Positions 10,333 to 60,652 of a DNA stretch of 64,000 nucleotides are shown here, in pieces. The stretch covers positions 7,926-71,925 of the forward strand of contig CAKOVH010000006.1 of assembly GCA_934121885.1 (NCBI GenBank), in the 5' to 3' direction. The first letter of the stretch is position 1; the number at the start of each line of letters is the position of its first letter. Origin of the DNA: an uncultured Clostridia bacterium. Lineage in GTDB: Bacteria > Bacillota > Clostridia > TANB77 > CAG-508. The notes beneath the pieces are model-generated. The model did no database searches. It worked only from the letters and a program-made list of their open reading frames with translations, and was not told the DNA's origin. The translations under genes were made by a program, and so were the position numbers.

Positions 10333-10400
10333 ATTTCCTCCTTGCTAATATTTAACAATTTTGTTTTATTTCTAAAAAAGTGCATTATTTAAACACATAT

Positions 10401-29310: not shown

Positions 29311-32300
29311 TTATTTTCTTAATACTTTTTTAATAATTAATGTAATGCCTCCAATTAAGATTAATCCAATTGTAATACCTAATATGTAGTAGATAGGTGA
29401 TGCTCCAAATGGTGGTAATATAATTACCTTTTCTGCTACACTTGCATCAACTTCTTGTGCATCCTCTAATGGATTTTGGTTTCCTACTACTGAGTAAGCC
29501 ATTCTTCTACCAACTATATTACTTGTACTTACAATTTCAGTTATATTTCTGTATGTTAAGTCATCACTCTTATTTTCTGCTGTTATTAATTGTGATAATA
29601 CAAGAGTTTTTTCATTAACTTCACCTGGTTTTAAGTCTTTAGATAATTCAGATGTTTGGATAATTGTATTAAACTTACTTACATTGTCTGTTAATTTTGC
29701 ATTTACTAAGTTTTGATTTATTAAATTGTCCTTACTTATTACTGACCATCCACTATTTCTACTATCGCTACTATTAAATTGTAAATTATTTGCTACGTAA
29801 TCTACTACTTGGTTAGCATTTGTTGTTACAACATTACCTGATTGCTTTCCTTTATAATAAAATTCTTTTCCATCATAATCTACTTCTCCAACATTTGCAA
29901 CTGCTATTCTATATGTAATTTCTATAGTTGCTCCATGCATTAATTCTTCATCCATTGTTAATTGTACTAAACCTTTGTCTGCATTTTTTACTAAATTATT
30001 AACCTCTTCTCTATATGAATATCTATTCTTGCCATCTTTTCCATAATACACTTCATATTTATCATTTTTCTTTTTGTCTGCTAAATTATATTCTGTATGT
30101 CCTTTCCAAACAACATTATCGCCTTTTTTATTTACATCAAATAGAACAGTATTATTTGCTAATGTAACTTTAATATTTGTTATAGATTTATTAATTTCAA
30201 GTTGTGCTTTTGGTCTTTCAACTAATCCAATGTTTATATTTTCAAGCTTATAACTTGGATTTCCATTTTCAGATTCACTTTGTAAATTACTTTCAACTTC
30301 TACAACTACTACACCAGATTCTGCTGTTGCTGTTGTATTTTTAATTAACTCTTGTCTTAACGCTTCTACTTCGCTAGCTGAATACTTATTTCCGTTATAG
30401 CTTGGTGTTTCATATAGTATAGAAAGAATTTCTGCAATTCCATTTGTTACATTTGTTTTACTATAGTTGTTTATTTGTTCTCTTACAGACCAAATGTCTT
30501 TTGCATTAGATACATTATCTTTCTTAGTTGCTATATTAAATCCGTATTCTCCTGTTTCATTTTGATTATTAGCATCCAAATATCCTTTATATCTTCCATC
30601 TAAGTCTGTTGTAGGAGTTTGATCAATCCCTGCTTGATATGTTGTCGTTTTGTAATCTTGACCATTATATGATTTTCCATTATTTTTGTCTGCTCCTGAT
30701 AGTCCTTCACCATATTTAAATCTTATTACATAATCACCTGGAATATAACTATCAAATTTATATGTTCCATCACTAGCTGTTTCCGTAGTTGCCCAAACAT
30801 ATTCTCCTTTTGGATTATTTATATCCCATACTGTTTTCTCAACTAATTGTACTTCAATTCCTGCAATTTTTGTTTCTTTATTGTCCATAATTCCATTTCC
30901 AATCATTGCATTTCCTTCATTTACAGTTCTTTCATCTTCCCAAGCAGTTCCATTTAACGTTCTTGTATTACCTGTAAGTTTTACATTTAATGCTGGAGCT
31001 GTATCTTCATCATCTTCATCATATAGTTCGTTCCTTCCTGGTTGTCCGTTTTTTCCCATAGAACTTGGTATTGAGTCTCTATCGACTCTACCTGCTATCA
31101 TATTGTCTCCAGTTACCTTATAACTATTTTCACCATTATAATGTGGTAATGTTGTCTTTCCACCCTTATAATATGTTTTAAATGCTCCAATTTCTGCTTT
31201 ATTTATTTTATCACCTAAACTTACTTGTCCATTACTATCATTTTTTAATTTGAATGTTAAATAAATATATTGTGTCTCTCCTGATTCTTGCTTTTTATCA
31301 ACATCTATTGTTATGGTTCCTTTTTTATTATCACTTGCTTTTGGAATTGCACCCCACTCAGCTACATTACCTTTTTCAAAGCTATCCTGTAACTTATCTC
31401 TTGTTTCTTTATCTTTTTTATAGTTTGTTTTACTTTGCCATGATAAACTTGGAATGTATTCAAATGTGCTATCGTAGTAATCATATACAGTTGTTGCATG
31501 TCCTAACATACTCATTGATTGGTTACGTACTGCTACTTTGTATGTTGCATATACTTCTAATAATCCATTGGCATTTCCATTCTTTCCTTTAAAGTTCCAA
31601 TCTGCATCATCTAAGTTTCTTTCATATCCACCAACAACATTTATTGTCCACCCTGCATATCCAGCATCACTATTTGCTTGTTGTCCATCTTCAGAATTTG
31701 CTAATTTATTATCATATCCATATACTTCAGTTTTTCCATTAATTTTTAAAGTTGCTACATATAAATCTTTCTTTAATGCCATATCAAACTCTATTCTTTG
31801 TGTAATACCAAAGTCTATATGTTTAATACTATCGTTATCATCATATACTGCTTTATATGTTGTACCAGATACAGTTTTTATGTCTTTACCTATTACAAAC
31901 TGATCATGTTTTGGATATTTAACAAGTGCATCTTTTCCATCGCTACCTGTGAATGCTGATAAAGTAAATATTCCTGGTTCATTATAATATTGTGTTCTTT
32001 GATCATCATATCTTAATTGTTCAACTGTGTATCCTTCATTACCATCTATTTCTTCGAATTTCTTATTTAGTAAATCTCTATCACTTGTTGTTTCGGTAGC
32101 TATAGAGTGTTTGTCATCTAATTGATCTGTATATATTGTATTTTCATATTGTTGTCCATTATACTTAAATTCAACATAATATTTTTTCATTGCATCAAGT
32201 TTTTCAAATTTATATTTACCTTCACCATCTGTAGATTTTTGCTCAACAACTTTATTATCCTCATCGTAAAGAATTACTGGTATATTATTTACAGGTTTTT

Positions 32301-33960
32301 CAGAATCTGCTCTTTGTCCATCAGGAAGAGTTTCCTTACCACCTTTTTCATCTTCCCATACTATTCCTTCAATATCCATTGTGATGTCTATATTTTCTAT
32401 TTCTAATTCTTGTTTATAAAGACTTCTTACTGCATCTGCTGCAATTAAGTTTTGTACAACAGAATCTGATGAAGAATAACTACAATTATATGGTCCACAA
32501 TCTTCATAACAATTAGGTCTTGTATGTGTATGTTCTGTTTTATAACAAGTCTTTTGTATTGTATTTCCTTTTTCATCAGTAGTAGTTCCGTTACATTCCT
32601 CAGTATGTGTGTGTTCAGTTTTTCTACAACTTAAATGGTCATGGTCTACTCTTGTCCTTGAATGTGAAAAACTAATCTGATGTTTTTCACCTTTATAATA
32701 TGTATACTCACCATTAGCTAACATATATTTGAATTCTACTTTTAATGTAATATATGAAACCCTATTTGGATCATCTACACTTAATCCTGCATTTGGATCA
32801 CTAAATATAATTTGAAAATTTTGGTCTGTTTCTGGATATACTTGTTTTGTTTCATCAACTTTTGAAACATTTTCTGGTTCAAAATATTTTGGTGTTTCAG
32901 CACTTCTATCAAGATTAGTTGCTTTATCTACTAATATAATTTTTTCTATTTTTATATTATCTTTTACCAATTTCTTTTCACTATTATATCCAACTACTAC
33001 CATGTTTGATATTCCTGAAAAAGATATTCCACTTTTTCCATCTCTATTTTTTCCGTTTTCTTCTGTATATTTTATTTGAAATGGTCCTACTGTATACTTT
33101 TTATTTTTCTGATCTACTTTTGTTGTAACATCATCGATACTTGTTAAATCTTGAGGGTTTAATCCTTGATCTTTTCGTACAATTTCATCGTAATCTGCAT
33201 AATTTTTAGCTGTTTGTGTTAAAGGAGATTGACTTATAGTAGTATCTGATGTAGAAGTAACCAAACCTCCATCATATCCTGTTCCTCCTAAATTCCAAAT
33301 AGCTCCTTGCTTATCTTTTGTCCATTCTCCATTAGGTTCATTTGATGCAATATATGCTAATGCTGGAGGCAATTTTACAGTTCTTTTAGCTGTCCATTTT
33401 ACAGGTGTCCAATAATGTCCAATGTTTATTCCATTATACAACAATCCAGTTTGCCAGCCTCTTGAACCGCTAATATTCCATTCGCTACCATCAGGGTAAA
33501 CGTTATGTGCTACATATCCGCCTTTTCCTCCATTATATTGCTTTTCTAGATAAAATTTATCATAATGGTTTAAATAGCAATCACCCTTCTTATTATTTTC
33601 ATCAGCAAGTTGTGTATAATATTCATTATATGTTATATCCCACACATATGGTATGTGTGCATCAGGCTGAATACAATAAACTTGATATCCAGCTTTTGCA
33701 GGTACACGGGTATTAGTACCATTTGTGTGTCTATATGCATTAAAAGTATAACTATCATAAGTCCATGTTCCAAAATTAGTCTTATAAGAATATGTATTAG
33801 GGTCTTTTTCACCATTTATTAATGTTCCTGGACTTGCAGTATTAGTTGTATTTCCTGTTTCTGCACTTGAAATATTTCTAGTTATATAAAATATTCCAAA
33901 AGTAGTAAGTAATACTAAAAATATAGATAATAAACATATTTTTATAATTTTATTTTTCAT
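29311..33960 (-). CDS. Giant secreted cell-surface protein (1549 aa) with Cna-B/SdrD-B-type domains, a Cys/His-rich insert and a C-terminal TM anchor. Paralog 1 of 3.
   Basis: Signal peptide 'MKNKIIKICLLSIFLVLLTTFGIFYI'. Cna-B-like segments 'IPVILYDEDNKVVEQKSTDGEGKYKFEKLDAMKKYYVEFKY' and 'IAGIEVQLVEKTVWDINNPKGEYVWATTETASDGTYKFDSYIPGDYVIRFKY'. C-terminus 'VIILPPFGASPIYYILGITIGLILIGGITLIIKKVLRK', with no LPXTG. Start is 17 nt after the paralog-2 stop with an AAAGGAGGG RBS, so they are co-transcribed. Confidence 0.8.
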   Translation of the reverse strand: MKNKIIKICLLSIFLVLLTTFGIFYITRNISSAETGNTTNTASPGTLINGEKDPNTYSYKTNFGTWTYDSYTFNAYRHTNGTNTRVPAKAGYQVYCIQPDAHIPYVWDITYNEYYTQLADENNKKGDCYLNHYDKFYLEKQYNGGKGGYVAHNVYPDGSEWNISGSRGWQTGLLYNGINIGHYWTPVKWTAKRTVKLPPALAYIASNEPNGEWTKDKQGAIWNLGGTGYDGGLVTSTSDTTISQSPLTQTAKNYADYDEIVRKDQGLNPQDLTSIDDVTTKVDQKNKKYTVGPFQIKYTEENGKNRDGKSGISFSGISNMVVVGYNSEKKLVKDNIKIEKIILVDKATNLDRSAETPKYFEPENVSKVDETKQVYPETDQNFQIIFSDPNAGLSVDDPNRVSYITLKVEFKYMLANGEYTYYKGEKHQISFSHSRTRVDHDHLSCRKTEHTHTEECNGTTTDEKGNTIQKTCYKTEHTHTRPNCYEDCGPYNCSYSSSDSVVQNLIAADAVRSLYKQELEIENIDITMDIEGIVWEDEKGGKETLPDGQRADSEKPVNNIPVILYDEDNKVVEQKSTDGEGKYKFEKLDAMKKYYVEFKYNGQQYENTIYTDQLDDKHSIATETTSDRDLLNKKFEEIDGNEGYTVEQLRYDDQRTQYYNEPGIFTLSAFTGSDGKDALVKYPKHDQFVIGKDIKTVSGTTYKAVYDDNDSIKHIDFGITQRIEFDMALKKDLYVATLKINGKTEVYGYDNKLANSEDGQQANSDAGYAGWTINVVGGYERNLDDADWNFKGKNGNANGLLEVYATYKVAVRNQSMSMLGHATTVYDYYDSTFEYIPSLSWQSKTNYKKDKETRDKLQDSFEKGNVAEWGAIPKASDNKKGTITIDVDKKQESGETQYIYLTFKLKNDSNGQVSLGDKINKAEIGAFKTYYKGGKTTLPHYNGENSYKVTGDNMIAGRVDRDSIPSSMGKNGQPGRNELYDEDDEDTAPALNVKLTGNTRTLNGTAWEDERTVNEGNAMIGNGIMDNKETKIAGIEVQLVEKTVWDINNPKGEYVWATTETASDGTYKFDSYIPGDYVIRFKYGEGLSGADKNNGKSYNGQDYKTTTYQAGIDQTPTTDLDGRYKGYLDANNQNETGEYGFNIATKKDNVSNAKDIWSVREQINNYSKTNVTNGIAEILSILYETPSYNGNKYSASEVEALRQELIKNTTATAESGVVVVEVESNLQSESENGNPSYKLENINIGLVERPKAQLEINKSITNIKVTLANNTVLFDVNKKGDNVVWKGHTEYNLADKKKNDKYEVYYGKDGKNRYSYREEVNNLVKNADKGLVQLTMDEELMHGATIEITYRIAVANVGEVDYDGKEFYYKGKQSGNVVTTNANQVVDYVANNLQFNSSDSRNSGWSVISKDNLINQNLVNAKLTDNVSKFNTIIQTSELSKDLKPGEVNEKTLVLSQLITAENKSDDLTYRNITEIVSTSNIVGRRMAYSVVGNQNPLEDAQEVDASVAEKVIILPPFGASPIYYILGITIGLILIGGITLIIKKVLRK

Positions 33961-33977: not shown

Positions 33978-36900
33978 TTAAACATTCTTTTTATTTAAAA
34001 TTCTTTTTTTAATTTCAATTATTCCAAATCCAAGAAGTATAACAACTCCTAATGTAATCGTTGTATATGCTATAATTTTACCAGTTACAATTGATATAAC
34101 AATATCTGCCCTTGATAAATCGTCCTCATCAGTTACTCTGTTGCCTGGTGTTGAGTCAATATCTGTTAAACCTTGTTCATTATAACTTTCATAAATTTCA
34201 GCATTATTATTTAAAACTCCTAAAGCATTCTCTGTAATCTTCTTAGTGATAATTAAGGTTACTTCCTTTGATTCTCCTGGTTTAATAATTTCATTTGCTA
34301 AACTTGCATTATATACATTTCCGTTTTCAGATAAATACCAATCTTTATTTAGTTCTGTATTAAATCCTACTCCTTCTGGTAAATAATCTACTATTTTCTT
34401 AACATATCCAGGAATTGCACCTTCGTTTGTAACTACTATTTTGTATTCAATAATAGCACTACTCTTTCCTAAATTACTTCCTAATACTTCTATTTTACCA
34501 ACTCTTGAGTTTTCATATGTATATGTTTTTGTTCCTATTGTTGGTGTTGTTAAAGCTATTTTACTTACATATTTGTCCAATTTCAAATCGAATTTTTCTG
34601 CTGAATACACACCAATGTCAATATCTCTTACATGATTATTTGTAATCTCTATAGCATCTGTTGTAGCTGCAATCGTTCTCTTTCCATCTAATGTTATATT
34701 AATATTAATTACATCTGAGTTTAGTGATGTATCAACATCTTTTGCTTGATATGTTGTTAAGCTATATCTTGATGCATCATATAGGAATATAACAATATAT
34801 TCTCCTTGTGGTAAGTTATTAAATTCATATTTTCCACTACTATTAGTTGTTGTAATTTTATCTGAATTTGTATCTATATCTTTTACAATAGAGTTATCCT
34901 TTTTGTTTAATAGTATTACAGATATTCCTGGTAATATTGATTCGTCTGCATCACGTTTACCGTCCTTATTACTATCTATCCAAGCAGTTCCTGTAATTTT
35001 ATATCTATTAGTACTAGGTTTTGAAGGATCCGTTTCTGTTTCTCCATTTTCATGTATTTTTTCATAATATTCAATTATATTTGTAACTGTATTTGTTTCT
35101 ACTTCAGTAAATCCCTTTGCTGAAACAGCAACTTTATTTTTGACTTCTTTGTCATTTTTATTTGCTAATAATTTTGCTTTTGCAAATATTTGTATATCAA
35201 CACTATCGCCAGCTAGTAAAGGATCTATTTTTATTAAAACCTTTCCATTTGTTTCTTTTGTTACTATTTGCTCTTTTTCAGCATACGTATATGTAGCTTT
35301 TACAAAGTATAGTTCATTTGGTAATTTATCAGATATTATAATATCTCTTACTGAATTACTACCTTTATTAGTAATTTTGAAATTATATGTAACAGTTTCT
35401 CCTTCTTTTATATATTTAGAAGATGCTACCAAATTTGTAAACTCTAATTCAACCTTTTCAGTACGATACTCTAAAACATTAGAGCATTGTTCTTCTATTT
35501 CATCTGCTTTTACTTTAGCATAAAATGTTGCCTTTCCATTTGGTTCCTTTATTTCTGTGTTTAAAACAATAGCTTTGCTACTTTGTAACGTTCCTATATT
35601 AACTATAACAATGTTATTTTCTTCATCATATTCTACCCCTTCTGTAACCCCTTCATCATCTAATACACTATTTTTAATAATAGCATCTTTGAATTTAACT
35701 CCTTTTGTTAATGGGATAGTAACAACCGTATTTTTTAGCTCATCTGCTACCATATAAGTATTTCTTATTTTAATTCTATGCTCAATTATCATTCCACTAT
35801 TTAAGACCATATCTTCTTTAGTCCAGCTCTCAATGTTAATATCTATATTGCTTTGTCTTACTGCTAATTTCACTTCATTAGAAACTATCTTTCCAGATAT
35901 ATTGCTAAAAGTAATATCAACTTTTGAAATAATATCTGAAGAAGCATCACTTGCAACTTTCATGTCATATGAAACCTCTTTCGTTTGTTCTTTTTCAATA
36001 GCACCTACTTCAATAGTTTCTGGTGTAATAGATTCTACATTTTCTGGTTTAGTAATATTTACCTTAACATTATCCGCCGTTAAAGAGCCTATATTCTTTA
36101 TTATAACTTTCATTTTAATTGTCTGGCCTCTCCTAGCAACTGTTACTCCTTCAGGTAATACTGCTGAAAGTTCAGCTGTTAAAATTGCACCTTTTCCTGT
36201 TGTCATTCCCACAATTGCTGAATTTTTAGATTCTGAAATTGTTCCAATTGTTGAATTATTATTATAATATACCTTGTACATTTCATATACATCATTGTTA
36301 TGTGTCAAGTTAGCTGGAATTTCTACATCATATGAAAATTTTAATGTTCCACCTGCATTCATTTCATATCCATTCATTACTATTAAATATGACTTTGCTC
36401 CTGTTGTTGCTGTTTCTGTCCATCCATTTGCAGTATTGCTTAATTCATTTGTTGCATCTGTATTTTCTGAATAATATACTTTATATTTTGAAGAATCTAT
36501 TCCACTTAATGTTATATTTGTTTTTAATGTTGTACTAAATGTTGAGCCAAATGCTTCTGCTGTATCAATGTTTTTGTTATCTTTTGTAGGAATTCTTCCT
36601 AATATAACTATATTTGATATTTTATTAGAATAGTTATTTATAACTGTACCATTAATTTTTGCTGTTCTTGCATCTGCATAAGTTGCAATTGTTCCTATTA
36701 CACCTTCATCAGATATTGATAATATATCACTTTTTCCTTCTGCATAATTTGATATTCCATTTGCTGCAACAACTCCGTTAGGTGCTACAAAGTTAATGTC
36801 TGCCTGAATTCTTCCAGATGTTGTTGTAGCTACTGTATTTGCATTTGTAAAGTCCATAACAATTTTATTACTATTGCTTGGAGTTAACGTATCTACTGTT

Positions 36901-38975
36901 AAATCTGTATTTAATATTACTATTGTTCCTTTATATTCTGCATCAATTGTATATTTTGTTTGTTTTCCTTCTAATACTACATTAATTACTTGTGCTCCAT
37001 TTTCTGTAGTAATTGTTGGATCTTTTAATTTTAATCCATTTGCCATTAATATATTATGAGATTTTAAATCTACCTTTTTAATATATGAAGGTAATTTTAT
37101 TTTTAATGTAGGATTTGTGTATAATGCATTACTTATACTTGATGTATCTAGAGTTGCTCTTATCTCAACATTTTCATTTTTTACAACTGTTGATAAATCT
37201 TTTTTACTAACACTTAATTCTACTACAGATTTTGCTTCTGTTAATGGAATATTTAATGTCGCAGATGCTGTATCTGTATAATATGTTTCATCTTGTTTCA
37301 CATCCAAATATGTTGATGTGCAAGATACACTTGTCTTCATATTTGTAAATGTTTTCATTTGTTCTAACGTATAACCTTGTTCTACATTAAATGCCTTTTC
37401 TACATATATTACTAATTTTCCTTCACCAATTGGTCCTCTTGTTTTTAAGTTCTCATCTTTTGAATATGCAACAAACATTATTTGATTGTTATTTGCACTT
37501 GAAATATCTACTACATAATTTCCATCACTATCTTTGTTAGTATCTTTGTTAATTGTTGCAAATTTTTTCCCATTTGTGCTACATATATCAATTGTTCCAT
37601 CTTCTCCTAGAATCTTCTTAAAGCTTAATTCACTTACTTTTATTGTTTTATTATATGCATAGTTGTTTCCAGATACTGTTGTAGGATAACTTGACGAACT
37701 TCCTGATATTTGTAAATCGTCAATATTTTGTGTAATTTTTAATTCTCCTCTTGTAGCTTGCGATTCATATACTATTACACCATATCTTGTCCAATATGTT
37801 GTTTCTTTTCTATCTGCTTCACTTGCACTATAATTTGCATATATTTGACCTTTACTTACAGACTCACTGCCTAATACTTCAGCTTTAATAAGGCTTACGC
37901 CTTCTTTTGGTGTAATTACATCTGTTTGTTCAGCATAGATTTTTATTCCGCTTGCTGATGTTTTTATATCATCATATTCGCTTACTTGAACATTTACATT
38001 ATATTTAAAAGTTGTTGGAAGTCCTTGTGATTTATTTATTGCATTTGATATCTCATCACTTCTATATACACAAGTGATAATATATTCATCTTCTTTGTCT
38101 TTTGCCCAGTTTATTATATTGTCGCCATTATTTACTATAATGCTTACTTTTCCCTGTTCTTGGTCATAAGTGTAATTATCTGGTCCGAAATTTAACCCTT
38201 CTTTATCACCATTAGTTGCTTCTGTGCTATTTGCAACAACTGCCACTTCTTTAGCGTTTGTTCCCAATATATCTGGTAGCATTACCGATATTTCATTTCC
38301 TTTAACAGGTAATTTTCCATAACTTATTTTTGTTTTTATTTGAACTATAATTCTTGGACTATCAGGATATATAATGCAATTTACCACTTCATTACTAACG
38401 TTCGTAACATCTTTCAATTGTTCTCCTAGTTCCCAAGTTAACTTATTTACTATTTCTTTTGATACACCTTTTTCTTTTCCATTTGCGTCTACATATGTTC
38501 CTTGGAAAATTGCTTTAGTTTCTTTAGCAAAAAAGTCTGATGAAACTGTATCACTTTCAAGTATTGAAACTGGAACCTCTATAGTTACATCTGAACCATT
38601 ATTTAATTGCTTTAATGCTATTATATTGCTTTCTTTATTTACACTTTGAACATTGCTATTTTCTATATTTCCTGCAATTTTAAAGTTTACATTATCAAAG
38701 CTTATTTGTGCATTTTTTAAGTATCCTGCATTTTTAACTTTTACATTAACAAAAAGTTTTGTTGTTGCATCATACTTGTTCTTTTCAGTGTGTCCTCCTC
38801 CTTGAAAATATGCATTAAATTCTACGTTAGAATTTCCAGTTGCTGTTGTTTGTCCTGCAAGCTCTGCGTCTGTAAGAGCATATGATATTCCATACATTCC
38901 TAAAATTGACAAATTTGCCCCCGCAAGTACAATAACTAACATTACTGCAATTAGTTTTTCAAATAACTTGTTCAT
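33978..38975 (-). CDS. Giant secreted cell-surface protein (1665 aa) with DUF11/'conserved repeat domain' and Cna-B-type modules and a C-terminal TM anchor. Paralog 2 of 3.
   Basis: Signal peptide 'MNKLFEKLIAVMLVIVLAGANLSILG'. DUF11-like 'GETVTYNFKITNKGSNSVRDIIISDKLPNELYFVKATY'. Cna-B-like 'ILPGISVILLNKKDNSIVKDIDTNSDKITTTNSSGKYEFNNLPQGEYIVIFLYD'. C-terminus 'ADIVISIVTGKIIAYTTITLGVVILLGFGIIEIKKRILNKKNV'. AGGAGG RBS at the start. Confidence 0.8.
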   Translation of the reverse strand: MNKLFEKLIAVMLVIVLAGANLSILGMYGISYALTDAELAGQTTATGNSNVEFNAYFQGGGHTEKNKYDATTKLFVNVKVKNAGYLKNAQISFDNVNFKIAGNIENSNVQSVNKESNIIALKQLNNGSDVTIEVPVSILESDTVSSDFFAKETKAIFQGTYVDANGKEKGVSKEIVNKLTWELGEQLKDVTNVSNEVVNCIIYPDSPRIIVQIKTKISYGKLPVKGNEISVMLPDILGTNAKEVAVVANSTEATNGDKEGLNFGPDNYTYDQEQGKVSIIVNNGDNIINWAKDKEDEYIITCVYRSDEISNAINKSQGLPTTFKYNVNVQVSEYDDIKTSASGIKIYAEQTDVITPKEGVSLIKAEVLGSESVSKGQIYANYSASEADRKETTYWTRYGVIVYESQATRGELKITQNIDDLQISGSSSSYPTTVSGNNYAYNKTIKVSELSFKKILGEDGTIDICSTNGKKFATINKDTNKDSDGNYVVDISSANNNQIMFVAYSKDENLKTRGPIGEGKLVIYVEKAFNVEQGYTLEQMKTFTNMKTSVSCTSTYLDVKQDETYYTDTASATLNIPLTEAKSVVELSVSKKDLSTVVKNENVEIRATLDTSSISNALYTNPTLKIKLPSYIKKVDLKSHNILMANGLKLKDPTITTENGAQVINVVLEGKQTKYTIDAEYKGTIVILNTDLTVDTLTPSNSNKIVMDFTNANTVATTTSGRIQADINFVAPNGVVAANGISNYAEGKSDILSISDEGVIGTIATYADARTAKINGTVINNYSNKISNIVILGRIPTKDNKNIDTAEAFGSTFSTTLKTNITLSGIDSSKYKVYYSENTDATNELSNTANGWTETATTGAKSYLIVMNGYEMNAGGTLKFSYDVEIPANLTHNNDVYEMYKVYYNNNSTIGTISESKNSAIVGMTTGKGAILTAELSAVLPEGVTVARRGQTIKMKVIIKNIGSLTADNVKVNITKPENVESITPETIEVGAIEKEQTKEVSYDMKVASDASSDIISKVDITFSNISGKIVSNEVKLAVRQSNIDINIESWTKEDMVLNSGMIIEHRIKIRNTYMVADELKNTVVTIPLTKGVKFKDAIIKNSVLDDEGVTEGVEYDEENNIVIVNIGTLQSSKAIVLNTEIKEPNGKATFYAKVKADEIEEQCSNVLEYRTEKVELEFTNLVASSKYIKEGETVTYNFKITNKGSNSVRDIIISDKLPNELYFVKATYTYAEKEQIVTKETNGKVLIKIDPLLAGDSVDIQIFAKAKLLANKNDKEVKNKVAVSAKGFTEVETNTVTNIIEYYEKIHENGETETDPSKPSTNRYKITGTAWIDSNKDGKRDADESILPGISVILLNKKDNSIVKDIDTNSDKITTTNSSGKYEFNNLPQGEYIVIFLYDASRYSLTTYQAKDVDTSLNSDVININITLDGKRTIAATTDAIEITNNHVRDIDIGVYSAEKFDLKLDKYVSKIALTTPTIGTKTYTYENSRVGKIEVLGSNLGKSSAIIEYKIVVTNEGAIPGYVKKIVDYLPEGVGFNTELNKDWYLSENGNVYNASLANEIIKPGESKEVTLIITKKITENALGVLNNNAEIYESYNEQGLTDIDSTPGNRVTDEDDLSRADIVISIVTGKIIAYTTITLGVVILLGFGIIEIKKRILNKKNV

Positions 38976-39324: not shown

Positions 39325-39492
39325 ATGAACAATCAAAATAATCAAATAAACATGGCACAGCTTATGTCTATGCTTTCTAAAATGGATAAAAAAGACTTAG
39401 AAAATGGGTTAAGTCAAGTAAGTAAAATGCTAAATTCTAAAGATGCAGATTCTATCATAAATGAAATAAGAAAAAACACGAATAATCAGTAG
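39325..39492 (+). CDS. Small hypothetical protein (55 aa), Asn/Met/Lys-rich
   Basis: Not in the ORF track (under 60 aa). ATG at 39325 is preceded by a GAGGTGA RBS. Sequence: MNNQNNQINMAQLMSMLSKMDKKDLENGLSQVSKMLNSKDADSIINEIRKNTNNQ. Confidence 0.4.
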   Translation: MNNQNNQINMAQLMSMLSKMDKKDLENGLSQVSKMLNSKDADSIINEIRKNTNNQ

Positions 39493-39518
39493 CCGTATAT
39501 TTTTAAGGAGGAATTATT

Positions 39519-39914
39519 ATGAATGATGATATGTCTAATCTTATGGAGCAAATTAATAATATGATGAAGAATAATCAAATTCCAGATGATATTAAAAATA
39601 TCATAAATAGTATGTCTCAAAATTCATCAAATTCAGGAAATACAGATTCTAAAAATAAAGATACTTCATCTTCTGAAAATACTTTCTCTGATTCTTCTAT
39701 GCCCGAATTTGATATGGCAACAATTATGAAGCTAAAACGTGTTATGGAATCTATGAAATCTAGTTCTAATGACCCCAGAGCAAATTTGCTAAAATCACTA
39801 AAACCTTATTTGAAGGAAAGTCGAAAAGAAAAAGTTGATCAATATATACAAATTTTTGGAATGGGTAAAGTTTTTGAGATGCTTAACCCTTTAGGTGGTG
39901 ATTCTCGAAAATGA
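39519..39914 (+). CDS. Small hypothetical protein (131 aa). Low-complexity Ser/Asn-rich centre and conserved-looking C-terminal region.
   Basis: AAGGAGG RBS. The N-terminus 'MNDDMSNLMEQINNMMKNN' resembles that of the 55-aa ORF. C-terminus 'ANLLKSLKPYLKESRKEKVDQYIQIFGMGKVFEMLNPLGG'. Confidence 0.5.
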   Translation: MNDDMSNLMEQINNMMKNNQIPDDIKNIINSMSQNSSNSGNTDSKNKDTSSSENTFSDSSMPEFDMATIMKLKRVMESMKSSSNDPRANLLKSLKPYLKESRKEKVDQYIQIFGMGKVFEMLNPLGGDSRK

Positions 39915-40252
39915 TGTATACATATCCATATTATGGGTTTCCGAGAAGGTACACAAGATATAATGCATATTATCCACAGTCTGCTAAGGAAAATATGACT
40001 AGTTATCCACACAATTCACACATAAATTCCGAAAATACTAATAATACAAGCAAAACCTCCTTAGCACTTCAAAATGTAGAAGCCTCAAAAGAAAATAGAG
40101 ATTCAGCTCCTGATAAACCTTTATTTGAACTATTTGGTATAAAATTATATTTTGATGATGTCCTTCTTATTTGTCTTATATTCTTTTTATATCAAGAAGG
40201 TGTCCAAGATCAGTACTTATTTATTAGTTTAATACTTTTGCTACTTAGTTAG
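39911..40252 (+). CDS. Small hypothetical protein (113 aa): Tyr/Pro-rich N-terminus and a C-terminal hydrophobic segment
   Basis: Overlaps the previous stop (ATGA). 'MMYTYPYYGFPRRYTRYNAYYPQ...' then 'VLLICLIFFLYQ...LFISLILLLLS'. Confidence 0.45.
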   Translation: MMYTYPYYGFPRRYTRYNAYYPQSAKENMTSYPHNSHINSENTNNTSKTSLALQNVEASKENRDSAPDKPLFELFGIKLYFDDVLLICLIFFLYQEGVQDQYLFISLILLLLS

Positions 40253-40370: not shown

Positions 40371-40988
40371 TTATTCTAAAATCAATTCTCCTTTATTGTC
40401 TATGTATGCAAAGGTTTTTACCTCTATAATTCCAGATTCTTGTTTTTCAATTTCCTTTACAATGTCTGCTATTCTTATCTGTGCTGAGGTGATTTCTACA
40501 GCTTCAATTACAGCATCTCTATTTCCCTTTGCTCCAGCATGTGCTAAACCTCTTAGTGCACCTACCACAACAATATTTTCCCCTGCGATTACTTCTGCTC
40601 CAGGGTTAACATCTCCAATAATTACTAAGCTTCCCTCATACTCAATTCTTTGTCCTGAACGAAGAGAACCTTTGTGAAATTTAGTTTCAGATGTTGCAAT
40701 TTCCTTATAAAAACTTCTTTTTATTCCATGAAGTCCTAGTACCTTTGGACTATCAAATTCTATTCCAACATCTAAAAATCTTTTTATAAGTGATTGAATT
40801 TCATCCATTTCTTTATTTTTTAAAACCTTACCTGTAATAAATATTGGAGTTTTATCATCTTTATACAAGTTTTTTAGTTCTATCATCTTCTTTTTTAATT
40901 CTGCTATAATATCTCTTTGTTCTGCATATTCTTCAATTTTTATAATTACTTGATCTTTTTTCATACTAATATTAATATAATTCTTCAT
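40371..40988 (-). CDS. minC: Septum site-determining protein MinC
   Basis: 205 aa. C-terminal beta-helix repeats 'GSLVIIGDVNPGAEVIAGENIVVVGALRGLAHAGAKG'. Sits directly after the PBP2 gene. Confidence 0.85.
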   Translation of the reverse strand: MKNYINISMKKDQVIIKIEEYAEQRDIIAELKKKMIELKNLYKDDKTPIFITGKVLKNKEMDEIQSLIKRFLDVGIEFDSPKVLGLHGIKRSFYKEIATSETKFHKGSLRSGQRIEYEGSLVIIGDVNPGAEVIAGENIVVVGALRGLAHAGAKGNRDAVIEAVEITSAQIRIADIVKEIEKQESGIIEVKTFAYIDNKGELILE

Positions 40989-41009
40989 TTATTCTACATC
41001 CTCCAATTC

Positions 41010-43103
41010 TTATCTAACAGATTCTTTACTAGAAATTGCTTTCATATCTTCTGTAACAGAATTTGTATTCATTCCGAAATACTCGGCCATGATTTCTTTT
41101 GCAACACCTGCTGTATATCCACCAGTTCCACCTTTTTCAACTAAAACTACTACTGCTATTTCCGGATCTTCATATGGTGCAAATCCAACGAACCATGCAT
41201 GTGCTCCTTTTTCTCCATTTATACCAATTTGTGCAGAACCTGTCTTTCCACCAACTGTTATGTTAAAGTCTGCAAATGTTGAATATGCAGTTCCCCCAGA
41301 TTCGCTTGTAACACCTTTCATACCTTTTAATATTGCTTGTACATTTTCCTTTTTTACATCTAATTTTTCACTATTTGTACCAGTTATTCCTAATTTTTTA
41401 TTAACGAACTGATTTATTTCATCTTTAGATACCTCACTTCCATCTGCTTTAATAATAGATTTTACAAGAGTTACATCTATATCTTTTCCTCCATTTGCAA
41501 GCATACTTACGTATTTTGCCATTTGTAGTGGAGAAAAAGAATTATATGTTTGTCCTATTGCTGCTGAAAGTGTATCTCCTAAGTACCAGTCTGAGCCACT
41601 TATTTCTTTTGCTACTTTAGGTGATGCAAGTATACCACTTGTTTCATCTTGAAGTTCAATTCCAGCTTTTCTTCCAAGTCCTAAATAACTTGCATATTTA
41701 TCAATTCCGTCTATTCCAACTCTATATCCAAGTTCATAAAAGAAATAATTACATGAATGTTTAATTGCCTGAGATACATTTAAATATCCATGTCCTGAAC
41801 GATAACTTGTATAATACCAACACACTGGATTTCCACCTCTTGGATATACACCTGTATCATTTATTGTGGTTGTAGGTGTAATTTTTCCTGTTTCAAGTCC
41901 TGCAAGTGCTACTGCCATTTTGAAGGTAGAGCCTGGTGCATACATTCCACTAACAGCTCTATTATACATGTTGTTTCCCTCTTGATATGAATCATACTTT
42001 TCTTGGCTTATTCCTTTTACGAACAATCCTGGTTCATAATCCGGATAACTTGCAAGTGCAAGTATTTCGCCTGTCTTAACATTCATTGCAACAACGGCAC
42101 CTGATTTTGAGCCTGTTTTTTTACCATATTTTCCATTCGCAATATCTTTTATATTCTTCTCTAATGCTTTTTCTGCCACTTCTTGTAATTTAGCATCTAT
42201 AGTAAGAATAACATCATCACCTGCAACCGCTTCTTCTGATATATATTCACTTGTAATTGAACCATCAACTGCCATATCTATTTGTCTAACTCCATCGGTT
42301 CCTTTAAGGTATTCCTCAAACACATATTGAATTCCATTTTTTCCAATTACATCATCATTTCTATATGTATCTTTTCTTGTAGAATATTCATCTTCATCAA
42401 TCGCTCCTACATATCCTAAAACATGTGAAGCAAGTGCTCCTGATGTGTATTTTACAATTGGTTCTGTAATAATATTCATACCTGAAAGTTCACTATTTTG
42501 TTCCCTTATTTTTACAGCACTTTCTCTACTTATATCACTTGCAATTTTTACAGACCTTGTTGTACTATATCCGTTTCTAGTAATTTCATATCGAACTGCT
42601 ATTATCTTTCTTGCTTCTTCTACGTCATCTTCTTCAACTTTATATTTTTCTTTAAAATAATTAAAACATTGTTCAGCTGTAAAGTTTTCATCTATATTAT
42701 ATGACTTTTTCCATTCTTCTTGGCTTTCTTCTGATGAATATGTAAAAGAAAACGGATTTACTTTAATAGGCAAATTATCAATAAATTTATCTTTATTTTC
42801 TTCTAAAATCTTTGTCATTGTTTTAATTGCATTATTTAGTGTTTTATCATCTGCCTTAGTTTGATATATTTCAAGTCCAAAACCCATCTCATTTGTTACA
42901 AATTCAACACCGGTTCTATCTTTTATAGAACCTCTCGCTGCTCTTAAAACAGATTCACGTGTAAGTCTAGTATTTGATGTTTCTCTATATTCTGCCCCGT
43001 GTATAATTTGCAAATTAAAAAGCTGAATTAATAGTATAATACCTACAATATAAATTATTATGGTTAATAAATTGTACCTTAGTTTTATTTTTCTATCATC
43101 CAT
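41010..43103 (-). CDS. mrdA: Penicillin-binding protein 2 (class B transpeptidase, MrdA/SpoVD-like)
   Basis: 697 aa. N-terminal TM, 'APGSTFK' (SxxK), 'HSCNYFF' (SxN) and 'GGKTGSA' (KTG) motifs. Confidence 0.85.
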   Translation of the reverse strand: MDDRKIKLRYNLLTIIIYIVGIILLIQLFNLQIIHGAEYRETSNTRLTRESVLRAARGSIKDRTGVEFVTNEMGFGLEIYQTKADDKTLNNAIKTMTKILEENKDKFIDNLPIKVNPFSFTYSSEESQEEWKKSYNIDENFTAEQCFNYFKEKYKVEEDDVEEARKIIAVRYEITRNGYSTTRSVKIASDISRESAVKIREQNSELSGMNIITEPIVKYTSGALASHVLGYVGAIDEDEYSTRKDTYRNDDVIGKNGIQYVFEEYLKGTDGVRQIDMAVDGSITSEYISEEAVAGDDVILTIDAKLQEVAEKALEKNIKDIANGKYGKKTGSKSGAVVAMNVKTGEILALASYPDYEPGLFVKGISQEKYDSYQEGNNMYNRAVSGMYAPGSTFKMAVALAGLETGKITPTTTINDTGVYPRGGNPVCWYYTSYRSGHGYLNVSQAIKHSCNYFFYELGYRVGIDGIDKYASYLGLGRKAGIELQDETSGILASPKVAKEISGSDWYLGDTLSAAIGQTYNSFSPLQMAKYVSMLANGGKDIDVTLVKSIIKADGSEVSKDEINQFVNKKLGITGTNSEKLDVKKENVQAILKGMKGVTSESGGTAYSTFADFNITVGGKTGSAQIGINGEKGAHAWFVGFAPYEDPEIAVVVLVEKGGTGGYTAGVAKEIMAEYFGMNTNSVTEDMKAISSKESVR

Positions 43104-43133
43104 TAAAGTTAGTTATATACCTTTCTATTTATT

Positions 43134-43667
43134 TTAAAAGTATCTTGTTAAGATATTTTTTGTTTTAAATATATTTTCTAGTCCATATCCTGCCTTTTGT
43201 ATAATAGGATAAATTATAGCTACAATAATTGAATTATATAAAACTTCAATTATTAGTATTTTTATAAACTGATAAATTTCAAATGAAATTCCTAATCTGA
43301 ATATGTAGAAAATATATTCAGCAAGTTCATAAAGAATTGTTGCACCAGTTACCATTAACATGATTGTGATTCTACTTTCTTTTGAAAAATTATTGTCTAA
43401 ATATTCTCCTAAAAATCCTATTAATGCTAATACTATTCCAGAGATTCCTATTGTTCTTCCTACTAGTAAATCCAAGTAAATTCCAAATATTAAACCCAAG
43501 CCAATTCCTAGCTTTTTCCCTGTAAATAAACTTATAAAAAGAATAAATACAACAAACAAATTTGGCATTACTCCAGCTATTGTAAACCAAGTAAAAAAGT
43601 TTGCTTGCAGAAAATATATAATAAAAAAGTTTATAATTAAACATAATATTGCAATTGCCTTTTTCAT
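43134..43667 (-). CDS. mreD: Rod shape-determining protein MreD
   Basis: 177-aa polytopic membrane protein directly downstream of mreC. Confidence 0.75.
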   Translation of the reverse strand: MKKAIAILCLIINFFIIYFLQANFFTWFTIAGVMPNLFVVFILFISLFTGKKLGIGLGLIFGIYLDLLVGRTIGISGIVLALIGFLGEYLDNNFSKESRITIMLMVTGATILYELAEYIFYIFRLGISFEIYQFIKILIIEVLYNSIIVAIIYPIIQKAGYGLENIFKTKNILTRYF

Positions 43668-43679
43668 TTAACTTTCCTC

Positions 43680-44507
43680 CTATTCACTTTCATTACTAAT
43701 AATTACAAGAACTGTAGCTAATTTTGAAAAGTCTACTGCTGTCTCAACAGTTGCATAACGATCTGTTATATTTTTAGTATTAAATATCTCTTTAATTGTA
43801 CCTATATGAATACCCTTTGGATAAATTCCTCCAATACCTGATGTTTCCACACTATCTCCTTGTAATATACTAGCATCTGTTGGGATATATGTAGCTTTTA
43901 ACTCTTTCTTCTCTCCTAGTGTACCTTGTACAATAATCGTATCTTTTGTAGTACTAATTGTACTCGTAACTGCTGTACTTGTATCTACAATAGTTTGTAC
44001 TTTTGCTGTATGGTTAGTAGTAGAAATAACATGTCCAACTAATCCCTCGTCTGCTATAACTGTCATATTTTCTTTTATTCCATCTTTTGATCCCATATTA
44101 ATAACTACTATATTACTATAATTTCCTATATCTTTATTTATTACATATGCTGGAATTGCCGAGTATTCTTTATATTTATCTTTTAAATTAACATATTCTT
44201 TTAATGTTTCATTTTCGGATTTAATAATTTCATATTCTCTTAAAGACTGTTCAAGTTCGCTGTTTTTCTTTTTTAATTTTTCGTTTTCTGCTTGAAGATT
44301 ACTAATATTTTCGAAAAAGCTATCATTCCCTGCAAGTTTATTTTTTAAATATGTTAAACCATTTTGTATTGGCATTACCAAAGTACTTACTATGTTTTCA
44401 ACATATGATACATTGTTTACATCTGTATTTGTAATGATAACCAAAAAAATTAGTATAATAATCATAATAATGATTCCAGCAATTCCTCTTTTTTTGTTTT
44501 TATACAT
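43680..44507 (-). CDS. mreC: Rod shape-determining protein MreC
   Basis: 275 aa. N-terminal TM, a coiled-coil ('LQAENEKLKKKNSELEQSLREYE') and a C-terminal beta domain. Confidence 0.85.
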   Translation of the reverse strand: MYKNKKRGIAGIIIMIIILIFLVIITNTDVNNVSYVENIVSTLVMPIQNGLTYLKNKLAGNDSFFENISNLQAENEKLKKKNSELEQSLREYEIIKSENETLKEYVNLKDKYKEYSAIPAYVINKDIGNYSNIVVINMGSKDGIKENMTVIADEGLVGHVISTTNHTAKVQTIVDTSTAVTSTISTTKDTIIVQGTLGEKKELKATYIPTDASILQGDSVETSGIGGIYPKGIHIGTIKEIFNTKNITDRYATVETAVDFSKLATVLVIISNESE

Positions 44508-44521
44508 ACACTTCTCCTAGA

Positions 44522-45553: not shown

Positions 45554-45562
45554 TTTAATCAC

Positions 45563-48602: not shown

Positions 48603-51600
48603 TTACTTTGTTACATATTTTTTTATTAATACTATGCCTATTCCTAATGTAGTTACAATTATAATACCTATTAATACATATATAATATTTTCAGAACCAG
48701 TTCGTAATGAAAATATCATTTCAGAATATGCAAAATTATCTGTATTTTTCAAAGTATCCTTTTCTTCATTTGTTAAAATTTGATCAATTTCTCTTGGTGC
48801 ATCAAAAAATACTTGATTTCTTCTATTTCCTAAATTGTAGTTTCTTAAATCCCATTTTAAAACAATTTCTATTTCCTTCATTTGTTTTTCTGATAATGTT
48901 ATTTTTTTATTATATATAGCATTTCCGTCATTATCTAATGTCCAATCTGGATTATCTTCTTGTTCAAATATTGTTCCTTTAGGAACAACATCAATAACTT
49001 TATCAATTATGCCTTCTGATGTTCCATTATTTACTAATGTGATTTTATATTTTATTTTGGCATATGAAGAATTTGCTCTCATTTCTGTAAGTTCCATTTT
49101 TATTGGGCTACCTTTTCTTTGATAAATATTAAAATCTTCCGTTTTTCCACTTTCTGCGTATGTAAGACTTAACATTGTAATAGTCTTATCAATGCTGACA
49201 TCAAAATATTTTAATTGTGCATTTACTTCATCTTTACTATTTTCTTTTGATGTTTCATCATACTCGACAATATCTCCATGTTTATTTTGTTGTTCTATTT
49301 CAAAAGGTAAAATCATATCGGCACTTTCTCTATCTTTAATTACTACTTTTAGTTCTAACTCTAATTCTATTAATTGATTTTTATCATCTTGTTCTTTGCT
49401 GTATAATTCGCTTTCAAAATTTTCTTTAAATGAGAACATTGTTGTTTCTAATTTTCCATCAACCTCTGTCCATTTGTATTTCTTGTTAATTTCGCTATCT
49501 TTAACAAGTTCCATTTCCTTTGGAATAATTGTTGATACCTTAGATAAATATCCGCTTCCAACTCCTATATTTTTTACCTTTATTTTTACTTTTATAGTAT
49601 CTGTGTAATGTACATTTACTTCTTTAATTTCTTCTATTTCTGTACCATTTAATGCATTTATTACACTTTCTACCTTTAAGTTCGGTGAATCTGGATTTGT
49701 TATTTCAACTGTTAATCTTTTAGATGCACAACTTGTATAATTGTCAGTTTCCTCTAGTGTCGCTATTATATCATACTTTCCAATCTCAGATGGTTTTTCT
49801 ACTTGTGTACTTGTTCCAGTAATATAATACTTAAAGGTTACATTACCACCAGAATTGTTTTCAATTACAAATGGTTCAATTTTTTCTCTGTCAAATTTCT
49901 TTCCTTCACATCCAATTTTTATTTCTCCATCTGCTTTTTCTATCGTTCCTCTAACTTCTTCTGGTTGTATTAATGTATAATTATTAGCATCTGTTCCTTG
50001 TAATACTATATCATCCATTTTAATCTTCCAATTTCCTGTATTTTCACTTTCTGCTATTCCTGTTTTTGGAATAATTAATGATATATCATCTCCTTCTACC
50101 CCATTTACTATTGTTCCACCTATAATTTCTACTACATCTGTCTTATTATATTTTCTTGTTTTTCCTTGTATTTCACTTACCATTATGGTTCTTTTTTCTA
50201 TATTTCCTGTTATACTTCCATATATAGGTTGTGTTAAGGTATAGTTATAAGCATCCTGTCCTGTTAAAATAATATCGCTTTCTAATCTTATTTTATGATT
50301 TCCTATATTCTTGTTTTCTGCATATACCACACTTGGTAAAGTAAAACCAACCACATCTCCTACACATACATCAACTAGTTCTCCATTTGTTATTGTCATA
50401 CTATCATTTCCATCATAAATTTTATCTAGAGATGTTATTCCTTTTATTGTTATTATCTTCTTTGTTACCGAGTATGTTCCAGCTATTCCAGTTTTATATT
50501 CATTTCCATTATATACAACCTTTAGTTCATATGAATAATTTCCTACCTTATTTGGCAAAGTAGTTTCACTTTCATTATAGTATTCAACAATTGTAGCAGC
50601 TTTAGGGTTATTATATTGAACCCTATGATTATTTGCATCATATACATTGCTTGTATTTGTTACTGTAAGTCCACTATAACTTTCACATATTGGACAGCTA
50701 TCATATGTTGAACTAAAGTCTGGATGTCTAAGTCCTGCTTTACAATTATAGTATATATTATTTACCACTATTTCTTTAGTTGTCTGCCAGCCAACGTTAT
50801 CTGTTGCAACAGCAGTATAAGTTCCATTTTTTATAAAAGTTACACTTCCAGTATTTATAGTAGTTCCATTTATAGTAAAACTTTTTATTCCTGATTGTGA
50901 ATCTGTTGCAGATATTTTCATTGTCATACTATTTATAAATTTCGTATTAGTATCTTGTACATAATTTATACTTGGAGCTGTTCTATCTATTTTATATATA
51001 CCTGTAATTCTTTCATCACTTACATTTCCTTCATTATCTGTTGCTTTTATATGTAAATACTTATTTCCACTTGCATCAATATTTATTGTATCACTTGATT
51101 TTGTAATCTCATTACTCCATCCAGTAGTTGCAGGAACTTGGCTATCCGTTATTGCATACTGATAACTTTTAAATCCGCTTTGGGAATCATTAAAATCAAC
51201 ATTTACGTTTATTTCTTTTGCCCATCCGCCATTTTCAGGATTTATTGTTATAGATGGAGCAGATATATCATCAATTACTTCAAAAGTTCTAGAATAAATT
51301 TCTGATTTTAAGTTTCTGTCATTTGTAACCTCTAATACAATTTTATAAACACCTGTACTCGAAAAATCGCTAAATTGTGGAGTTTCACTTGTACTACTCT
51401 TTATCATAGTCTCATCTTTATATATTTCCCATTTCCACGATTTTATTGTGCCTCCATATGGATCATATGAGGTATCTTTTAATTTTAATATTTCCTTTTT
51501 GTAAATTTTGTTACTTTCGATATCAAATTGTGCAATAGGAAGTACACTACTATCATTAGTTGTATAAATGCTTGCAGGTTTACTCCAAGCACCTTGTAAA

Positions 51601-60638: not shown

Positions 60639-60652
60639 AATATTTCTCCTTT

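Follow-up and report, generated by a model that had tools for sequence, protein, structure and literature searches.

The stretch of DNA considered here (the window, 64,000 nucleotides of contig CAKOVH010000006.1 from an uncultured Clostridia bacterium of the CAG-508 lineage, with a GC content of ~28%) encodes three proteins of more than 1,000 amino acids (aa), designated P1, P2 and P3, whose C-terminal ends are the subject of this report. The three open reading frames (ORFs) lie on the minus strand, at 29311-33960 (P1, 1,549 aa), 33978-38975 (P2, 1,665 aa) and 48603-53318 (P3, 1,571 aa); plus-strand genes at these positions were ruled out, the corresponding frames being rich in stop codons. 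Each protein presents one N-terminal signal-like hydrophobic segment after basic residues and a single C-terminal transmembrane (TM) segment, as judged by hydropathy only. A single C-terminal TM segment, a positive-inside tail and an extracellular N-terminal bulk form a layout that fits a tail anchor.

P1 terminates as ...AEKVII-LPPFG-ASP-IYYILGITIGLILIGGITLII-KKVLRK. A membrane-proximal immunoglobulin (Ig)-like domain of the CLIPPER/DUF11-like type (residues 1325-1514; 29419..29988), defined by profile comparison with the P2 lineage and by structure prediction, is followed by the pentapeptide LPPFG (residues 1515-1519; 29404..29418), the predicted TM helix (29332..29394; hydropathy 2.47 over 19 aa, model residues 211-237), the basic cytoplasmic tail KKVLRK (29314..29331), in which the pattern I-K-K-x-V-L is conserved, and directly thereafter the stop codon (29311-29313). 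P2 ends in ...ADIVI-SIVTG-K-IIAYTTITLGVVILLGFGIIEI-KKRILNKKNV, with a domain of the same type (residues 1460-1627; 34095..34598; delimited by its model, fold matches and 176 homologues), the pentapeptide SIVTG (residues 1628-1632; 34080..34094), the TM helix (34011..34076; hydropathy 2.23, model residues 207-238) and the tail KKRILNKKNV (33981..34010). The P3 terminus, ...SEMIF-SLRTG-SEN-IIYVLIGIIIVTTLGIGIVLI-KKYVTK, comprises an Ig-like domain homologous to that of P2 (residues 1370-1536; 48711..49211), the pentapeptide SLRTG (residues 1537-1541; 48696..48710), the TM helix (48624..48686; hydropathy 2.75) and the tail KKYVTK (48606..48623). The pentapeptides were placed by translation, with the aid of orthologue or homologue tails in P1 and P2 and of a match of the isolated tail to the TIGR01167 model in P3. 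All these coordinates were checked by translation, and the tails are identical, on the minus strand, to those spelled out in a preliminary description of the locus. The TM segments measure 21-22 aa, with hydropathy of 2.2-2.75, and the distance from the motif Gly to the C-terminus is 30 aa in P1, 33 aa in P2 and 30 aa in P3.

A homologous stalk-base module

In BLASTP comparisons (P2 versus P3, E=2e-12; P1 versus P2, E=1e-3), only the last ~200 aa were common to the three proteins. When the P1 and P2 lineages were compared profile against profile, they matched over 164 columns with a probability of 98.9% (E=1.3e-17), and the alignment paired AE.V.ILPPFG with AD.ΦΦSΦxTG in register, which puts the Phe of P1 in the Thr column. 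The restriction of the BLASTP similarity to the C-terminus, together with the profile match, delimits the common unit as a domain of ~165 aa plus a tail of ~40 aa, the former being an Ig sandwich and the latter made up of a pentapeptide with an invariant final Gly, a TM helix and a Lys-rich tail. As judged from sequence comparison, this similarity is one of homology and not of chance, and the last ~205 residues of P1, P2 and P3 constitute a single “stalk-base” module. The three proteins had initially been presented as paralogs sharing a module of ~40 aa. The tails do align and the C-terminal ~200 aa are homologous, but the conserved unit includes the domain, and full-length paralogy was rejected: beyond this region, SdrD_B domains are common to P1 and P2 only, and the Pfam architectures differ (SdrD_B in P1; DUF11, SdrD_B and NPCBM_assoc in P2; YDG, MBG and PKD in P3).

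The last 240 aa of P2, modelled by AlphaFold2 from a 63-sequence alignment, formed a confident beta-sandwich with a predicted local distance difference test (pLDDT) score of 90.3. Its last strand (model residues 195-204, LSRADIVISI) is followed by two coil residues (V205-T206) and by a helix that begins at the invariant Gly (G207-238). The P1 model (pLDDT 85) was also an Ig-like sandwich, with KVIIL as the last strand, PPFGA as a coil of lower confidence and a helix starting at S211. According to these models, the first two residues of the P2 motif, S-I, would be part of the Ig fold, so that part of the “motif” is domain structure, while the P1 pentapeptide appears more exposed. The top Foldseek matches of the P2 model were CARDB domains (3idu/2kl6, E ~1e-4, TM-target 0.62-0.65), which are E-set Ig domains; the CLIPPER (DUF11) domain 9IFR was also matched (E=1.9e-3), and the fold neighbours included membrane-proximal Ig domains that precede a TM helix (integrin calf, TRAP-beta). 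Fold matches of the P1 model in the PDB were weakly Ig-like (integrin calf, antigen I/II, SpaD), none of them at E<=1e-3. Pfam gave no match at E<=0.1 for the terminal domains of P1 (1325-1514), P2 (1460-1627) or P3 (1370-1536), and several short homologues consisting of only the terminal domain carry precomputed PF01345 matches. The proposal that a DUF11-like domain precedes each tail is consequently sustained by the models, the CARDB and 9IFR fold matches and the PF01345 assignments of short homologues, although Pfam misses the terminal domains of the window itself. Conserved residues K9, E51 or D71, and N131 (P2 numbering of the family alignment, A2) are candidates for an intramolecular Lys-Asn isopeptide triad.

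In fibrillar adhesins, CLIPPER domains serve as units of the stalk (PMC12617251). The fold of these CLIPPER/CARDB stalk domains is also that of the domain before the tail, internal tandem copies of it build the stalk in relatives of P1-P3, and the protein class and domain partners agree with the published survey (PMC12617251). The terminal copy differs in having a hydrophobic last strand and xTG, not an amphipathic strand leading into the next domain.

Conservation across the junction, helix and tail

Conservation was profiled in 104 representatives of clusters of <=50% identity. The pentapeptide proved to be the information peak of the tail, with Gly invariant at position 0 (100%), Thr at -1 in 97%, a variable residue at -2, Ile, Val or Leu at -3 and Ser or Thr at -4. 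In the P2 lineage, TG occurred in 116/116 complete homologue tails (consensus [S/G/T/A]-[I/V/L]-x-T-G), all of them ending as ...A(D/E)ΦΦΦ[S/G/T/A][I/V/L]xTG followed by the TM segment and the basic tail. In the P1 lineage, the 75 unique orthologue tails conserved L, P, P, F and G at 88, 93, 99, 89 and 100%, respectively; position -1 was Thr in seven of them (LPPTG, IPPTG, IAPTG, TPNTG and, three times, TPPTG) and Tyr in one (LPPYG). An independent database census of the P1 type returned LPPFG 62 times, LTPFG 8, L/MPPYG 6, and LNPFG, LPPSG and TPPTG once each. An orthologue of P3 with 89% identity (P0284) presents SLPTG where P3 has SLRTG, the X position varying and TG being kept, and Pro is found at motif position 2 in rare family members (MPKTG, APKTG, SPATG, SPRTG). 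The xxxTG and LPPFG flavours coexist in adjacent genes of the same genomes, each conserved. Loss of the motif from orthologues had been put forward as a check on its significance; it is kept in essentially all of them.

Comparison of terminal and internal copies of the domain was informative. A TG located 7-14 residues after an acidic patch was present in 103/106 terminal copies versus 4/391 internal copies, showing that TG belongs specifically to the junction between domain and TM helix. In multi-copy relatives, the internal copies end as ...EDDID-KEYLKVKY and pass straight into the FDLSLRKFI of the next domain, the last copy alone having the hydrophobic strand and xTG. The notion that TG is merely the end of the Ig fold was rejected on these grounds, as KEYLKVKY adjoins FDLSLRK with no TG between them. 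The junction motif follows the conservation logic of LPXTG, and some members would qualify as LPXTG anchors.

Downstream of the motif, the 104 representatives conserve Tyr at +5 (76%), Gly at +19 (88%) and Ile, Lys and Lys-Arg at +23, +24 and +25 (~75-90%), as well as the cytoplasmic pattern IKK(Y/K/F)V(L/I), and the length from Gly to the C-terminus is nearly fixed (median 28, minimum 27). Such uniformity exceeds that of a generic sortase signal. Conservation of the TM helix, remarked upon at the outset, therefore applies to these positions, the remainder being generic hydrophobicity. Among tail-like ORFs, 162/166 carried the domain and the other four were polytopic or spurious, a proportion to be read in the light of the loci having been chosen around family genes and of the domain hidden Markov model (HMM) including the tail. 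This family HMM was built from alignment A2, of which P1 and P3 are rows, and its matches to those two proteins are circular.

Sorting signal or permanent anchor

The tripartite layout of motif, TM segment and basic tail, which had suggested a sorting signal from the beginning, is real and has dimensions in the range of proven signals. Signals of Clostridioides difficile and Staphylococcus aureus span 28-33 aa from Gly to the C-terminus with hydropathy of 1.8-2.7, and those of P1-P3 30-33 aa with 2.2-2.75 (comparison signals from PMC4155245, Table 1, and from protein A). Sixteen sequences (the three full-length giants and 13 isolated tails) were scanned with the NCBIfam models. With TIGR01167 (LPXTG_anchor, cutoff 15.9 bits), an LPPTG orthologue tail scored 21.8 bits and the isolated P3 tail 18.1 bits, the latter matched from G onward (full-length P3, 11.4 bits); the P1 and P2 tails had no match, and other family tails obtained 13.5-14 bits or none. 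With the model of sortase B-type signals (TIGR03063, srtB_target, cutoff 18.15 bits), the best family tail reached 13.9 bits, position 2 of P2 and P3 being Ile or Leu and not Pro. The IPPTG, LPPTG and TPPTG tails produced weak, below-cutoff matches to the sortase-B, QVPTGV and Ruminococcus NPXTG models. Regarding the C-terminal (CTERM) sorting-domain models, the sole match in these 16 sequences was a negligible one to Loki-CTERM (9.0 bits, cutoff 19.9), and the suggestion of an exosortase- or archaeosortase-type signal was dropped, as no such model matches. The bulk of the family escapes the curated signal models. The pentapeptide L-P-x-T-G is absent from P1, P2 and P3, and LPPTG, IPPTG and TPPTG were found only in P1 orthologues of other genomes. 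The label “non-canonical” is overstated for P1, whose orthologues include LPPTG, IPPTG and TPPTG and whose LPPTG variant passes the LPXTG_anchor model.

Several known systems offer partial likenesses. As in LPXTG signals of the sortase A/C/F type (TIGR01167), the proteins are predicted to be exported and possess a pentapeptide ending in T-G with a variable third position, a hydrophobic segment and a basic tail, all within ~35 aa of the C-terminus, and these signals are likewise carried by multi-domain Ig-like adhesins. The differences are the S-I/V/L-x-T-G motif devoid of Pro in P2/P3, the Phe replacing Thr in P1, the near absence of a linker between folded domain and motif, and a TM segment and tail that are far more uniform. 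The QVPTGV-type class B sortase pilin signals (TIGR03065) show by precedent that position 2 can be hydrophobic and other than proline (QVPTG), and together with the Ruminococcus NPXTG anchors (NF033846) they exemplify lineage-specific variant signals in Clostridia. QVPTGV and NPXTG signals occur in pilus or heme-uptake loci with a sortase adjacent, whereas no sortase adjoins P1-P3 in the neighbourhoods searched.

On balance, the tails of P1, P2 and P3 are tentatively taken to be a divergent sortase-type sorting signal, at least in the TG lineages. According to this proposal, the last beta-strand of the CLIPPER/DUF11/CARDB-like sandwich would run almost directly into a signal of the LPXTG class, formed by [S/G/T]-[I/V/L]-x-T-G in P2 and P3 or L-P-P-F-G in P1, a TM segment of 21-22 aa and a Lys-rich tail. 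The sequence features show that, after Sec export, the TM segment and basic tail keep the C-terminus membrane-bound, the last Ig domain resting on the outer side and the fibre extending away from the cell. A sortase encoded elsewhere in the genome would then cut after Thr and link the protein to peptidoglycan. Such cleavage is doubtful in the P1 lineage, with its Phe for Thr, and proteins of this lineage may remain anchored in the membrane. The proposal is favoured by the nature of the carriers, SdrD_B/CLIPPER/TED fibrillar adhesins, a class usually anchored by sortases (PMC12617251), and by the interchange of LPPFG with LPPTG, IPPTG, TPPTG and TPNTG among P1 orthologues.

A number of observations weigh against it. 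Most P2/P3-type motifs have no proline, the P1 lineage keeps Phe (~89%) or Tyr at the would-be acyl-enzyme residue, and the P2 model leaves two residues between the folded domain and the TM helix, with S-I of the motif inside the last strand; the TM segment and tail are unusually uniform. Proline is present in nearly all known sortase motifs. Besides, the Pfam scan found no sortase-family protein among the window ORFs of >=150 aa, a type I signal peptidase being the only signal-processing enzyme there. None was found either in the remainder of the 80.8 kb source contig, of which one end was read directly and the other only through a syntenic contig of another sample, and the sequences around relatives, ~1.6 Mb in ~85 contexts, were equally negative. 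The latter comprised 1.55 Mb of related loci in which phmmer with S. aureus SrtA (an approximate query) and a TLxTC+His regular expression retrieved nothing, and seven further contexts whose precomputed Pfam labels included no sortase. Housekeeping sortases are often unlinked to their substrates, and for this reason the missing sortase in these neighbourhoods is weak evidence. The literature consulted had nothing relevant on LPPFG as a sorting motif, nor on a sortase in CAG-508.

A further point against cleavage comes from the only look-alike pentapeptide that has been tested. The C. difficile protein CbpA (CD3145) has an NVQTG motif followed by a hydrophobic segment and a basic tail, and was once proposed to be sortase-anchored (PMC4155245, PMC4371152, PMC5569036). 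SrtB, the sole sortase of C. difficile strain 630, requires Pro at position 2, and two groups reported that it did not cleave NVQTG peptides in vitro (PMC4155245, PMC4371152), for which reason CbpA has been doubted as a sortase substrate (PMC5569036). Both NVQTG and the (S/P)PXTG signals of this species are clostridial non-LPXTG pentapeptides ending in TG; NVQTG fits [S/G/T/N]-[I/V/L]-x-T-G, NVKTG occurs twice in the family described here, and its rare SPGTG, SPATG and SPRTG members fit (S/P)PXTG. The CbpA tail (VGQNVQTGDQSNIML...) differs by a polar spacer after G (GDQSN) and by the lack of a hydrophobic strand before the motif, so that the pentapeptide alone is alike, and membership of CbpA in the P1-P3 tail family is unsupported.

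The principal alternative, that of an uncleaved, permanent membrane anchor, is a serious possibility, if a less probable one. Ig domain, hinge (T-G), TM helix and tail (IKKxVL) would together make up a structural unit fixing the base of a very long fibre, one long enough to cross the wall; the invariant Gly would be the hinge between strand and helix and the first residue of the latter, Thr (in P1, the Phe or Tyr that follows Pro-Pro) would cap or pack at the interface, and the likeness to LPXTG would reflect descent from a former sortase signal or convergence. Such an anchor would account for the high-confidence P2 model, in which strand, two coil residues and helix follow one another; for the interfacial Tyr at +5, the small residue at +19, the IKK(Y/K/F)V(L/I) pattern and the 27-28 aa from G to the end in the 104 representatives; and for the proline-free motif. 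That orthologues may have T, F, Y or S at -1, a latitude that accords poorly with the constraint expected of a scissile site, also agrees with it, as do the CbpA precedent (PMC4155245, PMC4371152, PMC5569036), the Ig domains preceding a TM helix among the fold neighbours (integrin calf, TRAP-beta), the absence of a sortase from every sequence examined (window, contig and related neighbourhoods) and, as weak support, the 162/166 association of tail and domain. On the other hand, T-G is kept at 97-100% across thousands of clusters, far above the usual helix-capping preference, the conserved/conserved/variable/T/G pattern mirrors LPXTG, LPPTG orthologues pass a curated sortase-signal model, and the PPFGA linker of P1 is predicted to be exposed and not structured.

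An undescribed, dedicated sorting system in Clostridia, with the uniform tail (x-Φ-x-T/F-G, Tyr +5, Gly +19, IKKxVL-COOH, fixed length) for a recognition domain, seems unlikely. The enzyme would be a proline-independent sortase accepting Thr or Phe at the scissile position, or a non-sortase membrane enzyme comparable to exosortases, archaeosortases or rhombosortases. Like the CTERM systems (PEP-CTERM/exosortase, PGF-CTERM/archaeosortase A, GlyGly-CTERM/rhombosortase), the tails combine a short motif, a TM helix and a basic cluster at the extreme C-terminus, are restricted to particular protein families and lineages, and are as uniform as a curated CTERM domain, with fixed spacing. The tail always accompanies one domain family, its two flavours are each conserved in adjacent genes, and the curated models miss the bulk of the family, which would all be expected of such a system. 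Unlike in those systems, the T-G chemistry corresponds to sortase signals, exosortase-type signal HMMs give no match, and no exosortase-like polytopic protein was seen in the window or neighbourhoods. The window holds no candidate for a polytopic membrane enzyme, its ORFs of >=150 aa being all assigned or having <=1 TM segment, and the related loci revealed no conserved neighbour common to different lineages. A conserved block upstream of the adhesins in some Clostridia was rejected as the processing enzyme, its membrane proteins being of conjugation type by appearance. No enzyme for the dedicated signal initially envisaged was found nearby, nor any sortase, in the window, the contig or the ~1.6 Mb of related neighbourhoods. 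Finally, a chance or compositional likeness of three unrelated hydrophobic C-termini in an AT-rich genome is so improbable that it can be set aside: at a GC content of ~28%, Ile, Lys and Asn are enriched and tails of the IKK type arise more readily, but the C-terminal ~200 aa are homologous, and motif and spacing are kept in hundreds of orthologues and in the 6,866 cluster representatives described below.

In summary, the observation at the origin of this work was confirmed and its interpretation partly supported (layout, motif peak, TG specific to the junction), without the exosortase-type signal or the nearby enzyme. Sequence comparison demonstrates one homologous, widespread stalk-base module, which must hold in the membrane the C-terminus of giant proteins predicted to be exported. 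Whether the TG tails are cleaved by a sortase or retained as anchors, the module is a variant within a known class of anchors, not a new category.

Distribution, genomic setting and significance

The P2 C-terminal block has 176 homologues at E<=1e-3 in a set of 5.8 billion proteins, and an exhaustive profile search with the module retrieved 6,866 cluster representatives at E<=1e-3 (1,743 at E<=1e-30). These include a large subfamily ending in EDDIDDAPVΦLSΦxTG-x4-Y-...-IKKYVL, as well as Bacteroidota-type giants that have the domain as internal repeats and other C-terminal domains at the end. A scan of one genome per species gave 401 relatives; the best 78 of these loci all belonged to uncultured gut Clostridia, including Clostridium sp. 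CAG:508 and CAG:273, and among them were two chromosomes of metagenome-assembled genomes (MAGs) of 1.57 and 1.70 Mb. Complete MAG chromosomes of the clade include OZ006978.1 and OZ007016.1. The P3 lineage is very rare in the 5.8-billion-protein set, with two word-seeded matches versus 176 for P2 and 91 for P1, and its N-terminal architecture (YDG, MBG, PKD and an OmpL47-like barrel) is unrelated to those of P1 and P2, which suggests a transfer of the tail module, by recombination, to a different adhesin. A high-GC, Actinobacteria-like DUF11-repeat giant (P0136, on a 204 kb NCBI contig) ends in ...SPEAQDPPTSIVRTG-LDVLGLLVMGATLVVLGGL-MRRRWG; its xIVRTG motif comes after a Pro-rich linker and not after the last strand of an Ig domain, a hint that the Φ-x-TG motif can work detached from the domain.

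Two features of P1 lie outside the module. Its residues ~90-220 (33000-33700) contain YCIQP and KQGAIW, two sequences reminiscent of the Cys and TQxA(I/V)W motifs found in thioester domains (TED); this is a motif-level likeness alone, with no Pfam TED match and no PDB sequence match, and assignment of an N-terminal thioester domain was not retained. Same-tail relatives do carry PF08341 TED (L091; faint in L086 and L092). Moreover, a Cys/His-rich insert at residues ~455-515 (~32415-32600; HDHLSCRKTEHTHTEECNG...CYKTEHTHTRPNCYEDCGPYNCSYSS) could be a metal-binding or disulfide-rich element.

In the window and in related genomes, a P2-like gene is directly followed by a P1-like gene, the pair being placed between mreBCD-PBP-minC (PBP, penicillin-binding protein) and spoIIE. 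The min system is split in the window: minC (40371-40988) comes after mreB-mreC-mreD-PBP (region 40371-45562), and minD (9531-10385), minE (8955-9512) and rodA (7868-8974), also on the minus strand, are ~30 kb from minC. P2, P1, spoIIE, a WG-repeat protein gene, tatD and an ABC transporter are located between the two parts, and the order minC/P2-like/P1-like/spoIIE recurs in related MAGs (L001-L004). Between minC and P2, the plus strand (39325-40252) contains three small Asn/Ser-rich ORFs of 55, 131 and 113 aa, the last with a C-terminal hydrophobic segment; ORFs of similar size and position exist in L004, and their only family match was a weak one to YtzH-like proteins.

A gene for a TraG/VirD4-type coupling protein (61862-63865, minus strand) adjoins SbcCD-like genes (58650-61729) and housekeeping genes, and no further conjugation genes were seen beside it in the window or in the adjacent 9 kb (L083). 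In other Clostridia (L086 2503-7222; L089 2679-9735; L092 2099-7819), a TED and CLIPPER adhesin with the same tail is encoded just downstream of the conserved block mentioned above, which consists of Pfam-less membrane proteins and an SH3/CAP hydrolase. Its resemblance to a Gram-positive conjugation or type IV secretion system module suggests that same-tail adhesins may travel on mobile elements.

In abundant uncultured Clostridia of the human and animal gut (CAG:508/CAG:273-like, with genomes of ~1.6 Mb), the largest surface proteins are anchored at the end that bears these tails. The same module occurs in adhesin clusters numbering in the thousands, most of which go unrecognised by the curated models now in use, and with a profile for it annotation pipelines could identify such proteins as surface fibres that are anchored. 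Were the TG tails to prove sortase substrates, the known specificity of these enzymes would extend to proline-free motifs lying flush against a folded domain. If they are not, they would be a clear case of an LPXTG-like signal acting as a permanent membrane anchor, with a bearing on the NVQTG motif of C. difficile CbpA. Should a dedicated system exist after all, its substrates would be giant thioester/CLIPPER adhesins, in their thousands, of uncultured gut bacteria. In any event, the conserved change of Thr to Phe in one lineage provides a natural comparison by which the sorted and the uncleaved case may be told apart.

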